Positions 7,311-46,337 of a stretch of 46,337 bases of DNA are shown piece after piece. The translations under genes and the position numbers were made by a program. The notes below the pieces were generated by a model. That model saw only the letters and a program-made list of their open reading frames with translations. It made no database searches and had not been told where the DNA came from. The stretch is from an uncultured Candidatus Saccharibacteria bacterium (lineage in GTDB: Bacteria > Patescibacteriota > Minisyncoccia > Phycocordibacterales > JACOZG01), in assembly GCA_964651115.1 (NCBI GenBank), contig CAZYXJ010000002.1:1-46337 (forward strand), given 5' to 3'. How positions within the stretch are numbered: the first letter of the stretch is position 1; every line of letters begins with the position of its first letter.

Positions 7311-7859
7311 ATGTTCCGTTCCCTGTTTTCTTTCGTGTTCCATTGGGATATGGCTTGGGGTCTCTTGATTGCCCTTGTTGTGCCCTATGCTTTGGGGCAT
7401 GAGCATTCCTGGGCCCTGGTGGCCTTCAGTGTCGTCTCGGCGTATGCTCCGGACGGTGATTTTATTCCCTTTTTGGTGTTCCGAAAATGGATACCGGTAC
7501 CTAGCCATCGCGTGATCGGCCATCATCCAATATTCTGGTTGGGACTAGGTTTGGCAATCATGCCTTGGTCGCCAATCGGAGGGGTGATTTTGGCTCTGGG
7601 GACCATGTGCCATTTTCTCCACGACAGTGGGGAACCTCAAGGATTGCATTGGTTTTCTCCATTTAGTTGGAGGATGTGGCGCTTTGGTATGGCTGGATTT
7701 GTCGAGGTCTCCCCTGAAGTTCGCAGGGCAAGATTGAAGGAGCTTGAAAGGCTAGACGGCTGGGTTGAGGAGATTGGTCATCGGACCGAACTAGTAGAAC
7801 CAGGAGTTGCCTATGCCGTCATTTTTTTGGCTGCCCTGAATCTTGTCGCGATTTATTGA
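7311..7859 (+). CDS. Integral membrane protein, possibly YdjM/DUF457-type metal-dependent hydrolase
   Basis: SD-like aaagggg 8 nt upstream, several TM segments and His-rich loops (HEH, HRVIGHH, HFLHD). Confidence 0.4.
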   Translation: MFRSLFSFVFHWDMAWGLLIALVVPYALGHEHSWALVAFSVVSAYAPDGDFIPFLVFRKWIPVPSHRVIGHHPIFWLGLGLAIMPWSPIGGVILALGTMCHFLHDSGEPQGLHWFSPFSWRMWRFGMAGFVEVSPEVRRARLKELERLDGWVEEIGHRTELVEPGVAYAVIFLAALNLVAIY

Positions 7860-7864
7860 GCGTC

Positions 7865-7906
7865 GACCCCACACTTGTTCCAACAAGAGTGGGGTCTTCT
7901 TTTTTG
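7865..7906 (+). terminator. Rho-independent terminator
   Basis: gaccccacacttgtt / aacaagagtggggtc (one mismatch) followed by ttcttttttg. Confidence 0.8.
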
Positions 7907-7935
7907 TGATTGTTGCGGTTATACTAAACAATATT

Positions 7936-9648
7936 ATGACTCCGGGTCTGACATACTTTGCCGAGACGGATTTTCGCGGTCAGCGAACCAGGTTTGGTAT
8001 TAAGGACGAGGATCGTACTCGTCATGTTTATGTGATCGGTAAGACCGGTATGGGCAAGTCGACCTTGCTCGAGAATATGGCCGCCCAAGACATTCAGAAT
8101 GGTAATGGGGTGGCTTTTATTGATCCCCACGGTTCGGCCGTCGACAAACTTCTCGATTATGTACCGGAGCATCGCATTAAGGATGTAATTTATTTCGCGC
8201 CTTTTGATCTGGATTATCCGATTTCTTTTAATGTGCTGGAGGATGTAGGGAAAGATCAACGTCAGTTGGTGGTGAATGGTTTGATGAGCGCTTTTAAAAA
8301 GATTTGGGGCGAAGAATCTTGGTCAGATCGCATGGCTTATATTCTTACCAACATCTTGTTGGCGCTCTTGGAATACCCTGGTGCGACTCTGCTCGGAGTT
8401 AACCGTATCATTGCCGACAAGGAGTATCGCAATAAAGTTGTGGCTAACGTCACCGATCCGAGCGTTAAGTCTTACTGGTTGGATGAGTTTGCTAACTATA
8501 CGGAACGCTTTGCGGCGGAGGCGACACCAGCGATTCAAAACAAGATCGGCCAATTTACTTCCAATCCGTTGATTCGTAATATTATCGGCCAGGAACGGTC
8601 GTCAGTTGATTTTCGTAAGATCATGGACGAGCGAAAGATTTTGCTCATTAACTTATCTAAGGGTCGGTTAGGCGAGGGGAACGCCAATCTCCTGGGATCA
8701 CTTTTGATCACCAAAATTTATTTGGCGGCGATGTCGCGCGCCAATCTCCCGCCCGCGCAATTGGCTCAGGCACCGGAATTCTTTTTCTTTGTGGATGAGT
8801 TCCAATCATTTGCCAACGAATCCTTTGCTGATATTTTGTCGGAGGCCCGCAAGTATCATTTGTCGCTGACGATCGCTCATCAATATGTTGAGCAAATGTC
8901 CGAAGAGGTTCGGGCGGCAGTGTTTGGAAACGTTGGCACGACGATTTCTTTTCGCGTTGGTCCCTTGGATGCCGAAATTTTTGAAAAGATTTATAATCCC
9001 ACTTTTACTAAAGAGGACATGGTTAATTTGGGCCGCTTTCAAATGTACTTGTCGCTGATGATTGACGGAGTTGGATCCACGCCCTTTTCGGCGCGCAATT
9101 TGCCACCCATTTCGCCACCACCCGTTTCTTATCGACAGCAGATTATCGAATCCTCTCGTTCTCTCTATGCTGTTCCTCGGGTGACAGTCGAAGAAAAGAT
9201 TGGCAAATGGCATAGCGAAACGCGGCAAAATAATGTGGCTAAGAGTGGCCCCCGGAATACTCCGCCTCCACGGCCAGTTAATCCGGCGCCGATGGTGGCC
9301 AAAGCTGTTCCGGCGGCCCCTCGTCCACCCCTAACGCCCCGACCAACGCCACCACGCGAAGTGGCCGATGGTTTTGTGCCGCTTAAAGAATTAACGAAAG
9401 TAGCTCAGCCCCCCAAGCTTGATCCGTCGGAGCGATCAGTGTCTTTAGCGGCACTCAAGCCCAAGATCGGGGGAGAGAAAAGTACTGGCAAGCACGCCGC
9501 TGATTTGAAAGACGTTTTATTGGCCGTCCAGAAGGAGGCGCCAGTAAAGAGGGCGGAAGCTCCGGCGCCAACCCCAGCCCCGGTCGCGCCAACCAAAACC
9601 AAGGCCGAAGTGCCAGAAGCCGATTTACGTAAACTGCTCGAGTTGTGA
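7936..9648 (+). CDS. Soluble P-loop ATPase, TraD/TraG/VirD4 (type IV coupling protein)-like, with a Pro-rich tail
   Basis: Walker A GKTGMGKSTL, Walker B-like FFFVDEFQSF and ARKYHLSLTIAHQY. Start moved to ATG 7936 because the ORF-track N-terminus reads through the 7865-7906 terminator. The C-terminal ~150 aa are Pro/Ala/Lys-rich low complexity. Confidence 0.6.
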   Translation: MTPGLTYFAETDFRGQRTRFGIKDEDRTRHVYVIGKTGMGKSTLLENMAAQDIQNGNGVAFIDPHGSAVDKLLDYVPEHRIKDVIYFAPFDLDYPISFNVLEDVGKDQRQLVVNGLMSAFKKIWGEESWSDRMAYILTNILLALLEYPGATLLGVNRIIADKEYRNKVVANVTDPSVKSYWLDEFANYTERFAAEATPAIQNKIGQFTSNPLIRNIIGQERSSVDFRKIMDERKILLINLSKGRLGEGNANLLGSLLITKIYLAAMSRANLPPAQLAQAPEFFFFVDEFQSFANESFADILSEARKYHLSLTIAHQYVEQMSEEVRAAVFGNVGTTISFRVGPLDAEIFEKIYNPTFTKEDMVNLGRFQMYLSLMIDGVGSTPFSARNLPPISPPPVSYRQQIIESSRSLYAVPRVTVEEKIGKWHSETRQNNVAKSGPRNTPPPRPVNPAPMVAKAVPAAPRPPLTPRPTPPREVADGFVPLKELTKVAQPPKLDPSERSVSLAALKPKIGGEKSTGKHAADLKDVLLAVQKEAPVKRAEAPAPTPAPVAPTKTKAEVPEADLRKLLEL

Positions 9649-34279: not shown

Positions 34280-37081
34280 ATGAAACACGAAAGCCCGTTG
34301 GTCGGTGGCTTTTTCTTGGTCGCGCTAGCGATGTTTAGTTTCTTGGTGGCGCCCGGATTTGTCGCGGCCGCGCCGGCGCTCACGATTAATTATCAAGGCA
34401 AGTTGGCAGACGATAACGGCGCTGTTGTGACCGACGGTACTTACAATATGCGCTTCAAGCTTTATACTGCCGCCTCGGGCGGTAGCCCGGTTTGGACGGA
34501 GACGTGGTGCCACACCCTGGCAAATGATTGTACGGGGCCTTACGTTGACGGCGAAGATATCATTTCTAATGATCAGCGCGTGGAGGTGGCTGATGGCCTT
34601 TTTTCGCTGATGTTGGGGACCCAAACTTCTTTAAGCGCGGTTAATTTTGATCAGCCACTCTACCTAAGCGTCGAGATTGGAGGGACTTCGGAAGTTGCGG
34701 CCGAAGGGTGGGATGGCGAAATGTCGCCGCGCAAGCCGCTCGGCTCCGTGCCCTCGGCGTTTATCGCCCAGAGGTTGAATGGTTTGTCGTCTTCTCAATT
34801 CTTGCGCTCTGATGCCACCAATGCTACTTCGACAACGAACACCGCTTTGGTGATCAACCAACAAGGATTGGGAGCGTTGATCGATTTACAAGACGGTGGC
34901 GTGTCGGCCTTTAAAATTTTGGATGGCGGTAACGTGGGGATCGGCACAAGTACTCCTTACGCCAAGTTGTCGGTGGTGGGCGAGACAGTCAGTACTTATT
35001 TTACGGCGACCTCGACGACCGCCACTTCAACTTTTGCGGGCGGAGTCTCGGCTGGTGCTCTGGAAGTGACGGGCGCGGCTACCTCAACTTTTGCTGGCGG
35101 AATTAATTTAACGACGGGGTGTTTCGCGATTTCTGGCAATTGTGTCGGCGGAGCCGGTGGCGGTTCGGGAACGGTTGGGAGCGGTACCACGGGACAGACT
35201 TCTTACTATGCTGGCAACGGAACTTCGGTTACCGCGACCTCGACCATTTTTATTGGTACCACCAGTTACGTTGGTATTGGCACGGCGTCGCCGTCTTACC
35301 AACTTTCGCTGGCCGCTGATTCAAAGATTGGTATCGGTAGTTTGGCGGCTTTATACATTCCTAATCAAACCAGTTTCGTCGGTAGCTTTTTTGTTGGCGA
35401 TGGCGGCGCGAGTTTGGTCAGCGCCGGAGCTAACCAGGGTGACCACAACACTGGCGTAGGTATTGGCGCGGCCAACGCCCTAACTAGTGGTTATCAGAAT
35501 ACGGCCATCGGTTACCAATCTTTGCATCTGGCGACGTCATCAATTCAAAACACTGCTTTGGGTTATTTAGCTCTCCGCAATACCACTAGCGGTAGCGGCA
35601 ACGTGGGCCTGGGTGTTGGCACTCTTTCCAACAACAGTACTGGTAGCAACAACATGGGTATTGGTAGCAACACTTTGGTTACGAACACTTCTGGTTCGGA
35701 AAACGTTGGTCTTGGTTATCAGGCGATGCGTCTTAATAGTACGGGAAGTTATAATGTGGGTATTGGTAGTGAGGCGTTGTATAACAGTACGGTGACTGGC
35801 AGTGTGGCGGTTGGTTATCGAGCCCTCTATAGTGCCTCAAGTGGTTCTTACAACACCGCCGTTGGTTATCAGGCGGGTAAGGGAGCTAGTGCCCACACGA
35901 CTACGGGTGGCGTCTTTATCGGTTACAACGCGGGAGCGGCGATTACAACGGGCGCGACCAACAACACCATTATTGGCGCGGGATCTGGTGAGACGGTCAG
36001 CTCAGGTAACGGCAATATTTTGATCGGTTACCAGACGGCCAATAATCTTACTAGTGGCTCGCGCAATATCGCCATTGGTTATGACATTGATATTACTAAT
36101 TCGACGGGTAGTAACCAGTTAAATATCGGCAACTTTATTTTTGGAACGGGGATTGACGGTACGGCCGGTACGGTCAGTAATGCAAAGATCGGAATCGGTA
36201 CTACGACCCCCGTCTCTACGCTCTCGGTTCAGGGCTCGCTCTGTGTTCGCGATGATGGTTCTTGTGGCACCACGGCGGGGACGATTTACGCCACAACGGC
36301 GGCCATTTCGGACATTGACGTGGCTGAAAATTTTCCGACCCAGGATGAAACCTTGTCGGCGGGAGAAATTGTCTCGGTTGACCCTGGTGCTGATGAGCAC
36401 ATTAAGCGAGCCGAGAGCGGCGAAGTGGTGGTGGGAGTTGTTTCGACTCAGCCGGGATTGTTGTTGGGGAAAGAATTTTCCTCCGGTCGGCCGGTAGCTT
36501 TGGCGGGTCGCGTGCCGGTAAAGGTTAACGACGAAGGTGGTCCGATTGAGCCCGGTGATTTGATTGCTCTGTCTACCGTCCCGGGAGTTGGTCGCAAGGC
36601 GACGACGAGTGATGAGGTGACGGTCGGCGTGGCGCTGGGATCATTAAATGATTCAACCGGCGAAGTGGTGGTCTTTGTGAGTTTGGAACGTCAGCGCTTG
36701 GCTGACCAGCAGTTATTTGCGGATCGACCGGAGGCGGAGGTTAAATTACGCGAATTAGTCTCTTCTCTGGGCGAGTGGAGCTTATCGGTGGAAGGCATTT
36801 TAACGGTTAAAGAAATCCGGGCTGATCGTCTTTGTTTGGGGGAGACTTGTATTGGTCAAAATGAGCTCGATCGAATTTTGAGACGTTTGAATATTGATGA
36901 ACCAGAATCAACGCCTGATCCGGAACCCGAACCTGAACCCGAACCTGAACCGGAACCTGATCCTGAACCAGAACCAGAAGTTACCCCCGAACCAGAGACC
37001 ACTTCTGATCCGGAGCCAGAACCAGAACCAGAGCCTGGAGTTGTCGTTGACGAAGAGCCAACTTCTGAGCCAGCAGTCTAA
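34280..37081 (+). CDS. Secreted fibre/adhesin-like protein with YadA-head-like repeats and a Pro-Glu tail
   Basis: Signal peptide. There are three (V/I)GIGT(S/T)xP...LS(V/L) motifs and ~14-15-aa repeats of the type NTAxGYxAL..NTTGSxNVGxG (about nt 35460-36110). The C-terminal tail is (PE)n. Confidence 0.6.
36914..37036 (+). repeat. Imperfect hexanucleotide (GAACCN)n tract encoding Pro-Glu/Pro-Asp repeats
   Basis: cctgatccggaacccgaacctgaacccgaacctgaaccggaacct... read directly. Confidence 0.9.
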
Positions 37082-44533: not shown

Positions 44534-44692
44534 ATGAAGAAAGTCATCAGCACTGCTAAAAAATCCATCCAATCAATCGAGAAAATATCGCACTTTCGTT
44601 GTGCTCACTGCAACAAATGGTGGTCTATCGGTGATGCCCCGCGTCGTAAAAAGTGGTGGTGCCCTTGGTGTGGCCAGGGGGTTATGTTGTAG
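44534..44692 (+). CDS. 52-aa zinc-ribbon mini-protein (absent from the ORF track)
   Basis: MKKVISTAKKSIQSIEKISHFRCAHCNKWWSIGDAPRRKKWWCPWCGQGVML has two CxxC pairs 16 residues apart. GGGGA lies 5 nt upstream, and the start is 7 nt after the EamA stop. Confidence 0.5.
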   Translation: MKKVISTAKKSIQSIEKISHFRCAHCNKWWSIGDAPRRKKWWCPWCGQGVML

Positions 44693-44700
44693 GGTCTAGG

Positions 44701-44870
44701 TAAAAAAATAGCCCCGCTTGGAGGCGTTCCGGTCGATCCGGTCTGCCAAACGGGGGTTGCGAACGTTGCTCGAATGCTTAGCGGAATGCTAATCCTTGGC
44801 GAACTGACGGCCAGAAGGAGTTACATCCGAGCTTCGGTTGAACTCGCAACAAGTGCCTTTCGGGCACTTC
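44701..44870 (+). ncRNA. Candidate structured RNA, unit A (unclassified)
   Basis: P1 hairpin ccccgcttgg (44712-44721) / ccaaacgggg (44746-44755). Long-range helix GTTGCGA (44756-44762) / TCGCAAC (44844-44850) encloses three hairpins. Terminal hairpin aagtgcc-tttcg-ggcactt. No ORF. The ends are approximate. Confidence 0.45.
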
Positions 44871-44903
44871 CATCGCCAGTTTAATCTAAATTTTGTAATC
44901 TTT

Positions 44904-44937
44904 AAAGATGGCGGCCTCATAGAGTTTAAGATTTAGG
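44904..44937 (+). promoter_or_regulatory. 34-nt conserved box, copy 1
   Basis: AAAGATGGCGGCCTCATAGAGTTTAAGATTTAGG is 28/34 identical to copy 2. It holds a -10-like TAAGAT located 17 nt after AAAGAT. Confidence 0.6.
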
Positions 44938-44939
44938 AA

Positions 44940-44968
44940 TTGACAATTTGGTTTATGTAGTGTTTACT
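44940..44968 (+). promoter_or_regulatory. Sigma70-type promoter for ORF 45023
   Basis: TTGACA (44940-44945), a 17-nt spacer, TTTACT (44963-44968), preceded by TG. Confidence 0.6.
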
Positions 44969-45022
44969 ACCGGTAGAAAATGTTTTCGAATTCCAGATAA
45001 CCAAAATTGAAAGGACTAAGGC

Positions 45023-45214
45023 ATGACTCTACTTGAAGAATTTTACAATGCCCGTATCAGTGAACCGGATCCAGCAAAGAAGATGTTATTCACGGTCTTT
45101 AGTGATCTGATCGCGCGAGTTGGTTTTGGTGATTGGTGGCGTTCGTGCGACGAAAAGGTTCAAAACGAAATACTTCAAACCAACCTGGACAAGATTCGAC
45201 AGCAGATGTCGTAG
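45023..45214 (+). CDS. 63-aa hypothetical protein
   Basis: It has its own promoter and a gaaagga 10 nt upstream. The product looks soluble and helical. No family recognised. Confidence 0.45.
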   Translation: MTLLEEFYNARISEPDPAKKMLFTVFSDLIARVGFGDWWRSCDEKVQNEILQTNLDKIRQQMS

Positions 45215-45307
45215 TCAACGCCCACCATCTCAAACACGGAAAATTCACGTCGCGAGAGGAGGGTTTCTGTTAAATGAAGATGACTGCCATTGAAAAAAGG
45301 AAATATT

Positions 45308-45499
45308 ATGAAAAAGTTCTGGCTTCTGATTGCTCTTTGGAACACTGTGGTCATGTGTGTGAATCTGACTGTTCTGCCGCACTTCGGTCCGGCAGCGACG
45401 GCTTACATCACACCCCAATCGCAGTTGCTTCCGATCATGATCCCGCTGGCTCTCTACGCGCTTTCCTTCGGACAAGTTCGAAGGTTGGTGTGGAGGTGA
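45308..45499 (+). CDS. 63-aa two-TM membrane protein (hypothetical)
   Basis: MKKFWLLIALWNTVVMCVNL...LLPIMIPLALYALSF..RRLVWR. AAGGA lies 8 nt upstream and a terminator lies downstream. It competes with the overlapping frame 45274-45510. Confidence 0.4.
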   Translation: MKKFWLLIALWNTVVMCVNLTVLPHFGPAATAYITPQSQLLPIMIPLALYALSFGQVRRLVWR

Positions 45500-45523
45500 G
45501 ATCGGTTTGATCAGGTAATTACG

Positions 45524-45564
45524 AGGGCGGCCTGGATAAACTCTAGGCCGCCCTTTCTTCTTTT
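45524..45564 (+). terminator. Rho-independent terminator
   Basis: agggcggcc / ggccgccct with a 13-nt loop, followed by ttcttctttt. Confidence 0.75.
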
Positions 45565-45565
45565 A

Positions 45566-45599
45566 GAAGACGGCGGTGTCACAGAGTTTAAAATTTAGG
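45566..45599 (+). promoter_or_regulatory. 34-nt conserved box, copy 2
   Basis: GAAGACGGCGGTGTCACAGAGTTTAAAATTTAGG. GAAGAC, a 17-nt spacer, then TAAAAT (45589-45594). It runs straight into TAAAAATAGAGCC, the start of unit B. Confidence 0.6.
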
Positions 45600-45600
45600 T

Positions 45601-45745
45601 AAAAATAGAGCCGCGATGCACTGTTTCCCTTGGGAGACGGCGCATCCGGCTGATGAGTTGCGAGGCTTTCGTCAGCACAGGCGTTGCCTGATCTTTGACT
45701 AAGTCATGGGGTTGGGTATCCAAATCCAACCCTTTCGCAACTAAG
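45601..45745 (+). ncRNA. Candidate structured RNA, unit B (paralog of unit A)
   Basis: P1 agccgcgatgc (45609-45619) / gcatccggct (45642-45651). Helix GTTGCGA (45657-45663) / TCGCAAC (45735-45741) encloses three hairpins (caggc-gtt-gcctg, tgac-taa-gtca, gggttgg-N10-ccaaccc). The ends are approximate. Confidence 0.45.
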
Positions 45746-45761
45746 CAAATTGTAGCATTTG

Positions 45762-45795
45762 GAAGACGGAAATACTATCGAGTTTAAAATCAAAA
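45762..45795 (+). promoter_or_regulatory. 34-nt conserved box, copy 3
   Basis: GAAGACGGAAATACTATCGAGTTTAAAATCAAAA is 22/34 identical to copy 2, with the same GAAGAC-N17-TAAAAT geometry. Confidence 0.5.
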
Positions 45796-45940
45796 AAGCC
45801 CGTCGAGTACGTCTACTCGCGGACTTGTGTTTCCGAAAGACCTTTGGTGGCCCGGACGGGTGGGGTGGACATAATGCGATGCAGGGAGCACGTGCTCTAT
45901 CCTGGAGGCCCACCCCACCCGTCGCCGTCACCACTTTTTT
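45796..45940 (+). ncRNA. Candidate small RNA, unit C, ending in a long GC-rich terminator hairpin
   Basis: 5' hairpin at 45800-45822. A 14-bp perfect helix gacgggtggggtgg (45855-45868) / ccaccccacccgtc (45910-45923), followed by T6 (45935-45940). The ORFs predicted here cross these structures. Confidence 0.45.
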
Positions 45941-45983
45941 GACTTTACCAAAATCCTTCCTGGCCGTCAATTTTGCTACTAAA

Positions 45984-46011
45984 TTGACAAGCCGGGATAA
46001 TCGTGTATTCT
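45984..46011 (+). promoter_or_regulatory. Sigma70-type promoter for the RRM gene
   Basis: TTGACA (45984-45989), a 16-nt spacer, TATTCT (46006-46011). The -35 lies inside the inverted repeat gtcaattt-N7-aaattgac (45966-45988). Confidence 0.55.
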
Positions 46012-46108
46012 AATAATACGTAGTAAGTGTTTCTCGAGGTTCCTGCATTTGTTCAAAGTGTCGGGAGACGTGGAGAAAGGTCGCCTTACACGAAAAACAA
46101 AAGTTCAA

Positions 46109-46337
46109 ATGGCTAAAAAATTGTACGTCGGCGGTATTCCGTATTCAAGTACGGATGAGACGCTGAAGGCCGCTTTTGCTCAGGCTGGCTCCGTTGAGTC
46201 TGCGACCATCATCATGGATCGCATGACGGGTCGCTCGAAAGGCTTCGGCTTTGTCGAGATGACCTCGGACGAGGATGCGCAAAAAGCGATCGCGATGTGG
46301 AATGGTCAGGACTTTGAGGGTCGCAAGCTTACGGTCA
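46109..46337 (+). CDS. RRM-type RNA-binding protein (partial, runs off the right edge)
   Basis: MAKKLYVGGIPYS (RNP-2) and KGFGFVEM (RNP-1). Confidence 0.85.
   Translation, partial: MAKKLYVGGIPYSSTDETLKAAFAQAGSVESATIIMDRMTGRSKGFGFVEMTSDEDAQKAIAMWNGQDFEGRKLTV

Follow-up and report, generated by a model that had tools for sequence, protein, structure and literature searches.

What is a 34-nt box that stands three times, always on the same strand, in one small island of a Patescibacteria genome? The island lies near the right end of a stretch of 46,337 nt (the window) from an uncultured Candidatus Saccharibacteria bacterium (contig CAZYXJ010000002.1), between a mini open reading frame (ORF) for a zinc (Zn)-ribbon protein and the promoter of an RRM gene, and in a sequence-only reading the box had been taken for a reiterated promoter module serving a set of structured small RNAs. 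Judging from its nucleotides and its reading frame, each box is evidently homologous to the last ~10 codons and the stop codon of ychF, which encodes the ribosome-binding ATPase YchF. The island is probably an old array of small DNA cassettes bounded by copies of the ychF 3′-end, and it now lies away from any ychF gene.

The boxes and the 3′-end of ychF

The boxes are listed below. E values refer to a nucleotide profile of ychF termini, and an asterisk denotes a stop codon.

44904-44937, + strand: box 1, ychF-tail copy with a frame reading KDGGLIEFKI*; profile match at 44901-44936, E = 4.7e-5
45566-45599, + strand: box 2, ychF-tail copy with a frame reading EDGGVTEFKI*; profile match with E = 6.3e-5
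45762-45795, + strand: box 3, the most decayed ychF-tail copy, reading EDGNTIEFKI with the stop codon lost; profile match with E = 0.0086

The left part of the island runs from the Zn-ribbon ORF through a putative shortened box (box 0), unit A and box 1 to a promoter-like TTGACA-N17-TTTACT, ORF63, an ORF for a putative 63-aa membrane protein and a strong terminator. The right part consists of box 2, unit B, box 3, unit C and the RRM promoter.

The three same-strand boxes were recovered at the positions and with the identities first reported. Boxes 1 and 2 are identical at 28/34 positions, boxes 2 and 3 at 22/34 and boxes 1 and 3 at 19/34, and all three fit the pattern (G/A)AAGA(C/T)-N17-TAA(A/G)AT. 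A repeat search of the window found the same three-copy family, with the likeness between boxes 1 and 2 spanning 46 nt. When 44693-45960 was shuffled 200 times with dinucleotides preserved, the closest two 34-mers had on average 21.2 identities and at most 24, and 28 was never reached. The core AAGAYGG-N10-GAGTTTAARAT does not occur in the 46-kb window outside the boxes. A weak box-like match, TACAAGACGGTGGCGTGTCGGCCTTTAAAATTT at 34887-34919 (E = 1.1), lies inside a 933-aa ORF (34280-37081) and is probably due to chance.

When metagenome contigs were scanned with this core, most matches had ...GAAGGNAARGANTAYATNGTN in front of them and a stop codon behind, giving the ychF-type terminus consensus ...EGK(E/D)Y(I/V)V(K/Q)DGDV(I/M)EFK(I/F)*. 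Among the deduplicated matches listed, 82 are distinct ychF-type termini, 51 lie inside unrelated ORFs and represent chance, and 19, including two of the window boxes, have an immediate stop codon with no ychF-type coding sequence upstream. By inspection, about 11 of the stop-ended matches outside the window are orphan copies with in-frame stops upstream, and the remainder are chance matches. The profile built from the 82 termini matched only the three boxes over the 46 kb, at profile positions 55-90, and its alignments end at the left edge of the box. The possibility that the AT-rich tail of the units is decayed upstream ychF coding sequence (..GKEYIV..) was ruled out, as the alignment never extends beyond position 55.

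These findings bear directly on the promoter reading, in which each box is a non-consensus promoter, with (G/A)AAGA(C/T) as the -35 and TAA(A/G)AT as the -10, for unit B, unit C and the leader of ORF 45023. The boxes share with a sigma-70 promoter and UP element an AT-rich hexamer, TAAAAT, that matches TATAAT at 5/6 positions, and an AT-rich tract further upstream. They differ in having no -35 match at the 17-nt spacing, where GAAGAC agrees with TTGACA at 0/6 positions. The best register, AAGACG-N16-TAAAAT, reaches 8/12 for boxes 2 and 3, just short of the threshold of a sigma-70 consensus scan (≥9/12 matches, 16-18 nt spacing), and 6/12 for box 1; none of the boxes was picked up by that scan. 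Perfect TTGACA hexamers are nonetheless found in this organism, at 44940 and 45984, the latter in the RRM promoter, which is conserved in locus L004. The counterpart in L147, a Hainich groundwater Parcubacteria contig, has TTTAAT as its -10 and no -35, and the box is absent from the rest of the 46 kb. Although the module is indeed reiterated, its conservation is accounted for by the coding sequence of ychF rather than by a dedicated promoter. Likewise, the upstream AT-rich tracts are similar between copies but are the conserved 3′ tail of the unit family and not an UP element. The TAGGTAAAAA start of units A and B is present, but it belongs to the sequence that travels with the box and not to a transcript start; in L147, TAGGTAAATAAAT likewise comes after a box and there forms the ribosome-binding region of the Zn-ribbon gene. 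Promoter function for all three boxes is therefore unlikely. Nothing but box 2 lies between unit B and the strong terminator at 45523-45555, and an independent unit B RNA would need to start there, so that a weak promoter in TTTAAAAT of box 2 is possible. More generally, a promoter-like short repeat may be a displaced gene end, and translation of repeats in all frames combined with a metagenome search settles quickly which of the two it is.

At position 10 of the box, where the Asp codon of DG-D-V has its second base, 82/82 ychF termini have A but 10/15 orphans from several contexts have G (L142, L144, L147, L152, L153 and L192, as well as 44913 and 45575 in the window). Among the orphans, A is kept only by near-identical recent duplicates and by box 3 of the window. 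Such an excess of G is not expected under independent neutral decay, and it argues for an alternative in which the orphans are not products of random decay. Here, the boxes would be functional RNA or DNA punctuation, such as a site bound or processed by an RNase or by the Zn-ribbon protein, that is also found at the 3′-ends of ychF transcripts and is kept by selection. The stop codon and the GAGTTTAARAT core are kept in most orphans, and AGAAGATGG pairs with a downstream CCATCTTCT in some ychF termini. However, the orphans were chosen by the pattern itself, which makes the conservation of the core partly a matter of ascertainment, and orphans that were found independently are visibly decayed, for example in L261 and in box 3 of L147. 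The window boxes differ from one another at 6-15/34 positions. Selection for such a role is quite unlikely to explain the boxes.

The pairing was seen in a subset of ychF termini and orphans when the box and 25 nt downstream were considered. In L137, L089, L142 and L214, the sequence at the start of the box faces its inverted counterpart just past the stop codon, forming a hairpin that encloses the last ten codons. The box itself has no internal dyad symmetry. In the window only box 2 pairs with a neighbour, which is instead an arm of the terminator upstream.

Cassettes behind ychF in other Patescibacteria

In several unrelated contigs, an intact ychF is followed by a short insert that has an orphan box at its far end. 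The repeats, cargo and start-to-start distances are:

L169: 48-bp repeat (46/48), cargo a DUF433 and DUF5615/PIN pair, 660 bp
L112: 36-bp repeat (35/36), cargo a 183-aa ORF, 717 bp
L179: ~106-bp repeat, cargo a 234-aa ORF, 1038 bp
L187: 31-bp repeat, 924 bp
L144: 24-bp repeat, cargo a 96-aa membrane ORF, 328 bp

In the window, boxes 1 and 2 are separated by 662 bp from start to start, compared with 660 bp in L169. The order ychF, NUDIX hydrolase gene, orphan box was also found in loci retrieved by homology of the NUDIX protein, which is independent of the DNA pattern. Direct repeats of the target, as at att sites, together with an intact target gene were found in L169, L112, L179, L187 and L147. 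In the window the repeats are present and the target gene is absent.

The most informative locus is L147, which is identical to L246 and L247. Its order is ychF, NUDIX gene, box, Zn-ribbon gene, box, a homologue of unit B, box and a DUF5671 gene, as follows (L147 coordinates):

1962-1996: ychF terminus
2407-2438: box with TTAGGTAAATAAATT, after the NUDIX ORF
2450-2620: Zn-ribbon mini-ORF, with its 3′-end overlapping the box at 2592-2625
2622-2792: unit B homologue, 170 nt (nhmmer match 2622-2795)
2793-2823: decayed last box (box 3), followed by the DUF5671 gene

Sites that lack the insert were found in L248-L252, whose YchF is 95% identical, and in L253-L260, where ychF is followed by the DUF5671 gene after 8-22 nt. 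In L248-L252 the gap is 8 nt, compared with an insert of ~830 bp in L147, L246 and L247. Box 3 of L147 with TATAAATATG aligns with the ychF terminus of L248 with TAAATATATG, whereas the present ychF terminus of L147 has many synonymous differences from that of L248. Comparison of the occupied and empty sites thus indicates that ~830 bp entered within the ychF tail, supplied a new tail and displaced the original one downstream, where it appears as the last box.

A module consisting of a Zn-ribbon gene, a box, a structured unit and a further box is common to L147 and the window. In both, the Zn-ribbon ORF is followed by TAGG and A-rich sequence, then by the structured unit and a box. The first box of the window module would be the following:

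44675-44696, + strand: box 0, a putative degenerate, shortened box overlapping the 3′-end of the Zn-ribbon ORF, from alignment by eye

In this weak, by-eye alignment, CAGGGGGTTATGTTGTAG..GGTC followed by TAGGTAAAAAAAT in the window is set against AAGATGGTGACGTTATTGAGTTTTTAATC followed by TAGGCAATAAAAAA in L147, and ~12/20 positions are equal. Box 0 was not detected by any profile search of the window.

The island could also have arisen by local tandem duplication of a unit and box, with later insertions and no mobility of cassettes, in which case the likeness to ychF would be a coincidence dating from one ancient duplication. Units A and B are co-oriented paralogues that each have a box behind them, and the similarity of boxes 1 and 2 over 46 nt is consistent with such a history. 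It would leave unexplained the many independent loci in which ychF-tail repeats surround unrelated cargo, the occupied and empty sites of L147 and L248, and the presence of the Zn-ribbon/box/unit/box module beside ychF in L147 and beside gatB/EamA in the window. An origin by duplication alone is accordingly judged improbable.

If the island is an array of cassettes, recombination inside the ychF tail would have been their way of entry. Each cassette would arrive with a tail copy of its own, so that ychF would stay intact and one extra tail copy would be left per event, and repeated events would build arrays. Recombination could be site-specific and catalysed by a recombinase acting in trans, as suggested by the sharp left edge of the box and by the tendency of orphans other than recent duplicates to have G at position 10. 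Alternatively, a single crossover of the Campbell type could have taken place over 25-100 bp of homology, as suggested by the variable lengths of the repeats. The array in the window would carry four cargoes. These are the three units and, between units A and B, an operon of two genes that has its own promoter and terminator; unit C would act as a terminator ahead of the RRM gene. The array would later have been separated from ychF and its boxes would have decayed to the present 28/34 and 22/34 identities. Given their divergence and their separation from ychF, the window boxes are probably relics that are no longer active.

Several observations weigh against the cassette interpretation. The window boxes, diverged as they are, give no sign of recent mobility, and no ychF gene lies within the 46-kb window, so that the link to ychF leans on homology and on L147. 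Repeat lengths, at 24 to 106 bp, are a poor fit to a single fixed att core. No recombinase or transposase family was found among the 36 large ORFs of the window, nor beside the arrays elsewhere, including the neighbourhood of L246, save for a fragment of a tyrosine recombinase in L192. The family of structured units consists of three distinct sequences, of which that of unit A is weakly related, and the covariation evidence is correspondingly thin. The integrase fragment of L192 was also considered as a recombinase acting in cis and was rejected, as it has no relatives in the other loci.

Integrative elements and islands that insert at the 3′-ends of genes are known from tRNA and tmRNA genes and also from protein genes, such as rbgA for Tn5253 (PMC8571831). 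The arrays described here resemble them in that direct repeats of the target 3′-end flank the insert, the gene end is restored by the insert, tandem copies result from repeated events and close relatives have empty sites. They differ in that the inserts are 0.2-1 kb, comprising one or two genes or an RNA-like element and no integrase, in the variable length of the repeat, and in that the array in the window is not beside its target gene. Integrons and clusters of attC sites lacking an integrase (CALINs) likewise have co-oriented arrays of small, mostly promoterless cassettes, in which the recombination site at the cassette end and the end of the ORF often overlap, and some cassettes have no ORF. 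The box, however, is a copy of a gene tail and not an imperfect palindrome of the attC type, and it lacks the R''/L''-L'/R' symmetry. No match to the Phage_integrase family, and hence no intI, was found in the window. Xer-dependent modules, such as integrative mobile elements exploiting Xer (IMEX) and the pdif modules of Acinetobacter plasmids, are small and non-autonomous, include toxin-antitoxin pairs and use ~28-bp sites with the host recombinase supplied in trans. A dif-type site is built of two 11-bp arms, inverted relative to each other, with a 6-bp spacer between them, and in pdif modules the sites alternate in orientation, whereas the boxes are direct repeats with no dif symmetry.

Elements that insert at the 3′-end of a gene and restore it are thus well known, as are tandem att repeats. 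As far as the literature searches show, the new elements are ychF as the target, tiny cassettes without an integrase in Patescibacteria, and a structured cassette that has no ORF. Nothing specific was found in the literature on ychF as an integration site in these bacteria. Should the interpretation hold, the end of a universally conserved housekeeping gene would be a recurrent landing pad for small accessory cassettes in Patescibacteria. The cassettes accumulated there would include a NUDIX hydrolase, a toxin-antitoxin pair, small membrane or secreted proteins and ORF-less RNA-like elements. Copies of the ychF tail would then provide a concrete, searchable signature of gene gain in tiny genomes that have few recognisable mobile elements.

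The structured units between the boxes

The three units between the boxes had been proposed to be a set of structured small RNAs:

44697-44903, + strand: unit A, divergent copy of a structured element, with an A-rich leader, P1 (44712-44755), P2 (GTTGCGA...TCGCAAC, 44756-44850), an extra hairpin (44853-44871) and an AT-rich tail
45596-45757, + strand: unit B, conserved structured element, with leader TAGGTAAAAATAG, P1 (45609-45651), P2 and a tail
45657-45741: P2 of unit B, GTTGCGAG...TTTCGCAAC, enclosing hairpins P3 and P4
45791-45950, + strand: unit C, with an A-tract, a short hairpin, a long GC-rich hairpin (arms 45845-45868 and 45910-45933) and T6

This proposal stands in part, as at least units A and B belong to one family of structured non-coding elements, while unit C looks like a terminator. 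The predicted fold of unit B has a free energy of -70.8 kcal/mol (z = -6.3 against shuffles) and that of unit C -71.3 kcal/mol (z = -4.7), whereas the fold of unit A as a whole is unexceptional (z = -1.7). Unit B is homologous to the unit of L147 (nhmmer E about 1e-6) despite their differing G+C content. In P1 an A-U pair in one is replaced by G-C in the other and a C-G pair by U-A, and the inner helix is formed from unrelated sequence yet remains paired. Both copies have an A-rich leader, the junction G(A/G)UGAGUUGC, a P2 formed by GUUGCRAG/UUUCGCAAC that encloses exactly 85 nt, the hairpin CAGG/CCUG, and a P4 of GGGUYGG-GUAUC.AAU-CCRACC. All 24 of the modelled pairs are kept between unit B and the L147 unit, with two changed on both sides and two on one side, in a comparison that includes only 2-3 sequences. 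The + strand folds more stably than the - strand in both copies (-70.8 and -58.2 kcal/mol for unit B, -68.2 and -62.0 kcal/mol for the L147 unit), which favours an RNA made from the + strand.

Units A and B both start with TAGGTAAAAA(AA)TAG(A)GCC, as found in the repeat search, and they share the leader, P1 and P2. A covariance model (R1) built from unit B and the L147 unit scores 182.7 bits on unit B and aligns unit A from end to end at 6.8 bits, and unit A is by this alignment a distant variant of the unit B element. No members beyond A, B and the L147 unit were found in 2.7 Mb of related loci, using nhmmer, a regular expression for P2 and model R1, or in viral contigs. A match to R1 in L097 (17.6 bits) was dropped since it lacks most of the domains. 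Units A and B are most likely copies of a conserved cargo predicted to fold as a + strand RNA with a long hairpin and a three-way junction. With three sequences as its basis, the case for a functional RNA is suggestive, and unit B and the L147 unit would together be candidates for a new family of structured RNAs that has a well-defined place in the genome.

The statement that the units match no nameable RNA class was borne out, as Rfam 15 gave nothing in the island at the gathering score, and only the 16S rRNA fragment and two tRNAs in the window. Relaxing the threshold to E 10 gave no credible match in the island, the top one being a 21.9-bit L20-leader match that consists only of the terminator hairpin, and the L147 unit had no match up to E 1. 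A hammerhead ribozyme at CUGAUGAG in unit B was ruled out, there being neither a GAAA/UH core nor a match to the hammerhead families of Rfam. Coding by unit B, in the form of a 28-aa ORF, was also ruled out because the ATG-initiated frames differ from those of the L147 unit across conserved nucleotides.

Orphan candidates for structured bacterial non-coding RNAs have been found by comparative genomics (PMC6429828, PMC11109978). Like these candidates and the bridge RNAs of IS110 elements, the unit is a multi-helix element of ~170 nt that is kept across genomes of differing G+C content, shows compensatory changes and lacks coding potential. It differs from them in having no Rfam family and three known sequences, in lying always between two ychF-tail boxes, and in the lack of an associated recombinase. 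A role of the unit RNA as part of the recombination machinery, recognising the ychF tail as guide or scaffold in the manner of a bridge RNA, may be considered because the unit is flanked by boxes on both sides in 3/3 cases. In size (~165-175 nt) and in having hairpins with internal loops the unit is comparable to such RNAs, and there is a resemblance between the box 2 region and the 3′ P1 arm of unit B (TTCCCTTGGGAGACGGCG). However, this resemblance is absent in L147, the complementarity being inconsistent between unit B and the L147 unit, and most arrays have no unit. No adjoining recombinase gene was seen, with no DEDD/Tnp recombinase gene in the window or in L246. A guide function is consequently extremely unlikely. 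An undescribed cassette-capture system of Patescibacteria that docks at the ychF 3′-end, with the Zn-ribbon-linked ~170-nt unit as guide or scaffold RNA and the boxes with G at position 10 as the recombination site on the cassette side, is likewise very improbable.

In the L147 unit, P4 (2735-2765) contains GGGTATCTAATCC, the exact reverse complement of the universal 790-loop motif of 16S rRNA, GGATTAGATACCC. The counterpart in unit B of the window, at 45707-45732, is GGGTATCCAAATCC. This complementarity could be due to chance, or the loop could be able to pair with 16S rRNA.

Unit C has no homologue in any locus retrieved. Its 24-nt arms followed by T6 have the features of an intrinsic terminator, with a loop too long for the rule of the terminator scan, and it looks like a long, possibly bidirectional, terminator ahead of the RRM promoter.

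Neighbouring genes and small proteins

The remaining features of the island and its borders are:

44534-44692, + strand: Zn-ribbon mini-ORF, 52 aa, with weak matches to Zn-ribbon families; left neighbour of the array
44940-44968, + strand: putative promoter of the ORF 45023 operon, TTGACA, 17 nt, TTTACT, read from the sequence
45023-45214, + strand: ORF63, a conserved small protein
45308-45499, + strand: second small ORF from the ORF list, a putative gene for 63 aa with two hydrophobic segments, co-oriented with ORF63
45523-45565, + strand: intrinsic terminator, a 14-bp GC-rich stem (45523-45555) then a T-run, closing the two-ORF cassette
45984-46011, + strand: RRM gene promoter, TTGACA, 16 nt, TATTCT; right limit of the island

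The view of the island as non-coding holds for unit B, the frames of which are not conserved in L147, but not for ORF 45023-45214. This ORF evidently belongs to a real family of small proteins of ~65 aa, with 27 representatives at E ≤ 1e-3 (clustered at 50%) that are mostly 64-73 aa and align over the full length. The family consensus is ..LLEEF......P.D.AKKILF.V..DL..R.GFD..WD..D...QEEIL.TNLE.I., and ORF63 has no Pfam or NCBIfam family. An exact-protein look-up found the identical protein only on 3 contigs from one study. The second ORF has no family matches. The -10 of the promoter at 44940-44968 has no A at position 2, and for this reason it was not reported by the promoter scan. The hairpin at 45523-45555 was reported by the terminator scan as a GC-rich hairpin with a T-run.

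The Zn-ribbon ORF is 71% identical (tblastn) to the ORF at 2450-2620 in L147, which has the same position relative to the unit. Homologues in other contexts were found by tblastn in L082, L022, L024, L038, L059 and L245. A protein search gave a single database match, in L245, where the noncoding region differs and is followed by a DUF3800 gene. The single match is explained by the fact that such mini-ORFs are rarely called as genes. The L245 region (1737-1955) comprises ~220 nt of hairpin-rich noncoding DNA between the Zn-ribbon homologue and the DUF3800 gene, and has no Rfam match at E ≤ 1.

Among 80 GTDB relatives, none has island-like sequence beside gatB, and the closest gatB genes are 64-65% identical. 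In L004, the closest gatB relative, the gatB stop codon and the TTGACA of the RRM promoter overlap, and this promoter and its leader are conserved. Since gatB directly adjoins this promoter in L004, 44105-45983 of the window represents extra DNA relative to L004 and has the look of accessory DNA. The RRM promoter, TTGACA-N16/17-TAT(T/G)CT, and a 5′ leader of ~100 nt are conserved between 45984-46109 of the window and 5860-5988 of L004, where GatB is 64% identical. A hairpin, GTGT(C/A)(G/A)GGAG...CTTACAC, is common to the two leaders, and the leader may possibly be autoregulatory.

At the other end of the window, 1-1509 contains the 3′ part of a 16S rRNA gene (1-505) and an ORF with an SLT domain (804-1235), then tRNA-Ile(GAT) and tRNA-Leu(CAG). 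There is no 23S rRNA gene in this segment, indicating that the rRNA genes are unlinked. The ORF at 7843-9648, within a region of cell-envelope and glycosyltransferase genes, has weak matches to coupling proteins of the TrwB/TraG type and to HerA-like ATPases.

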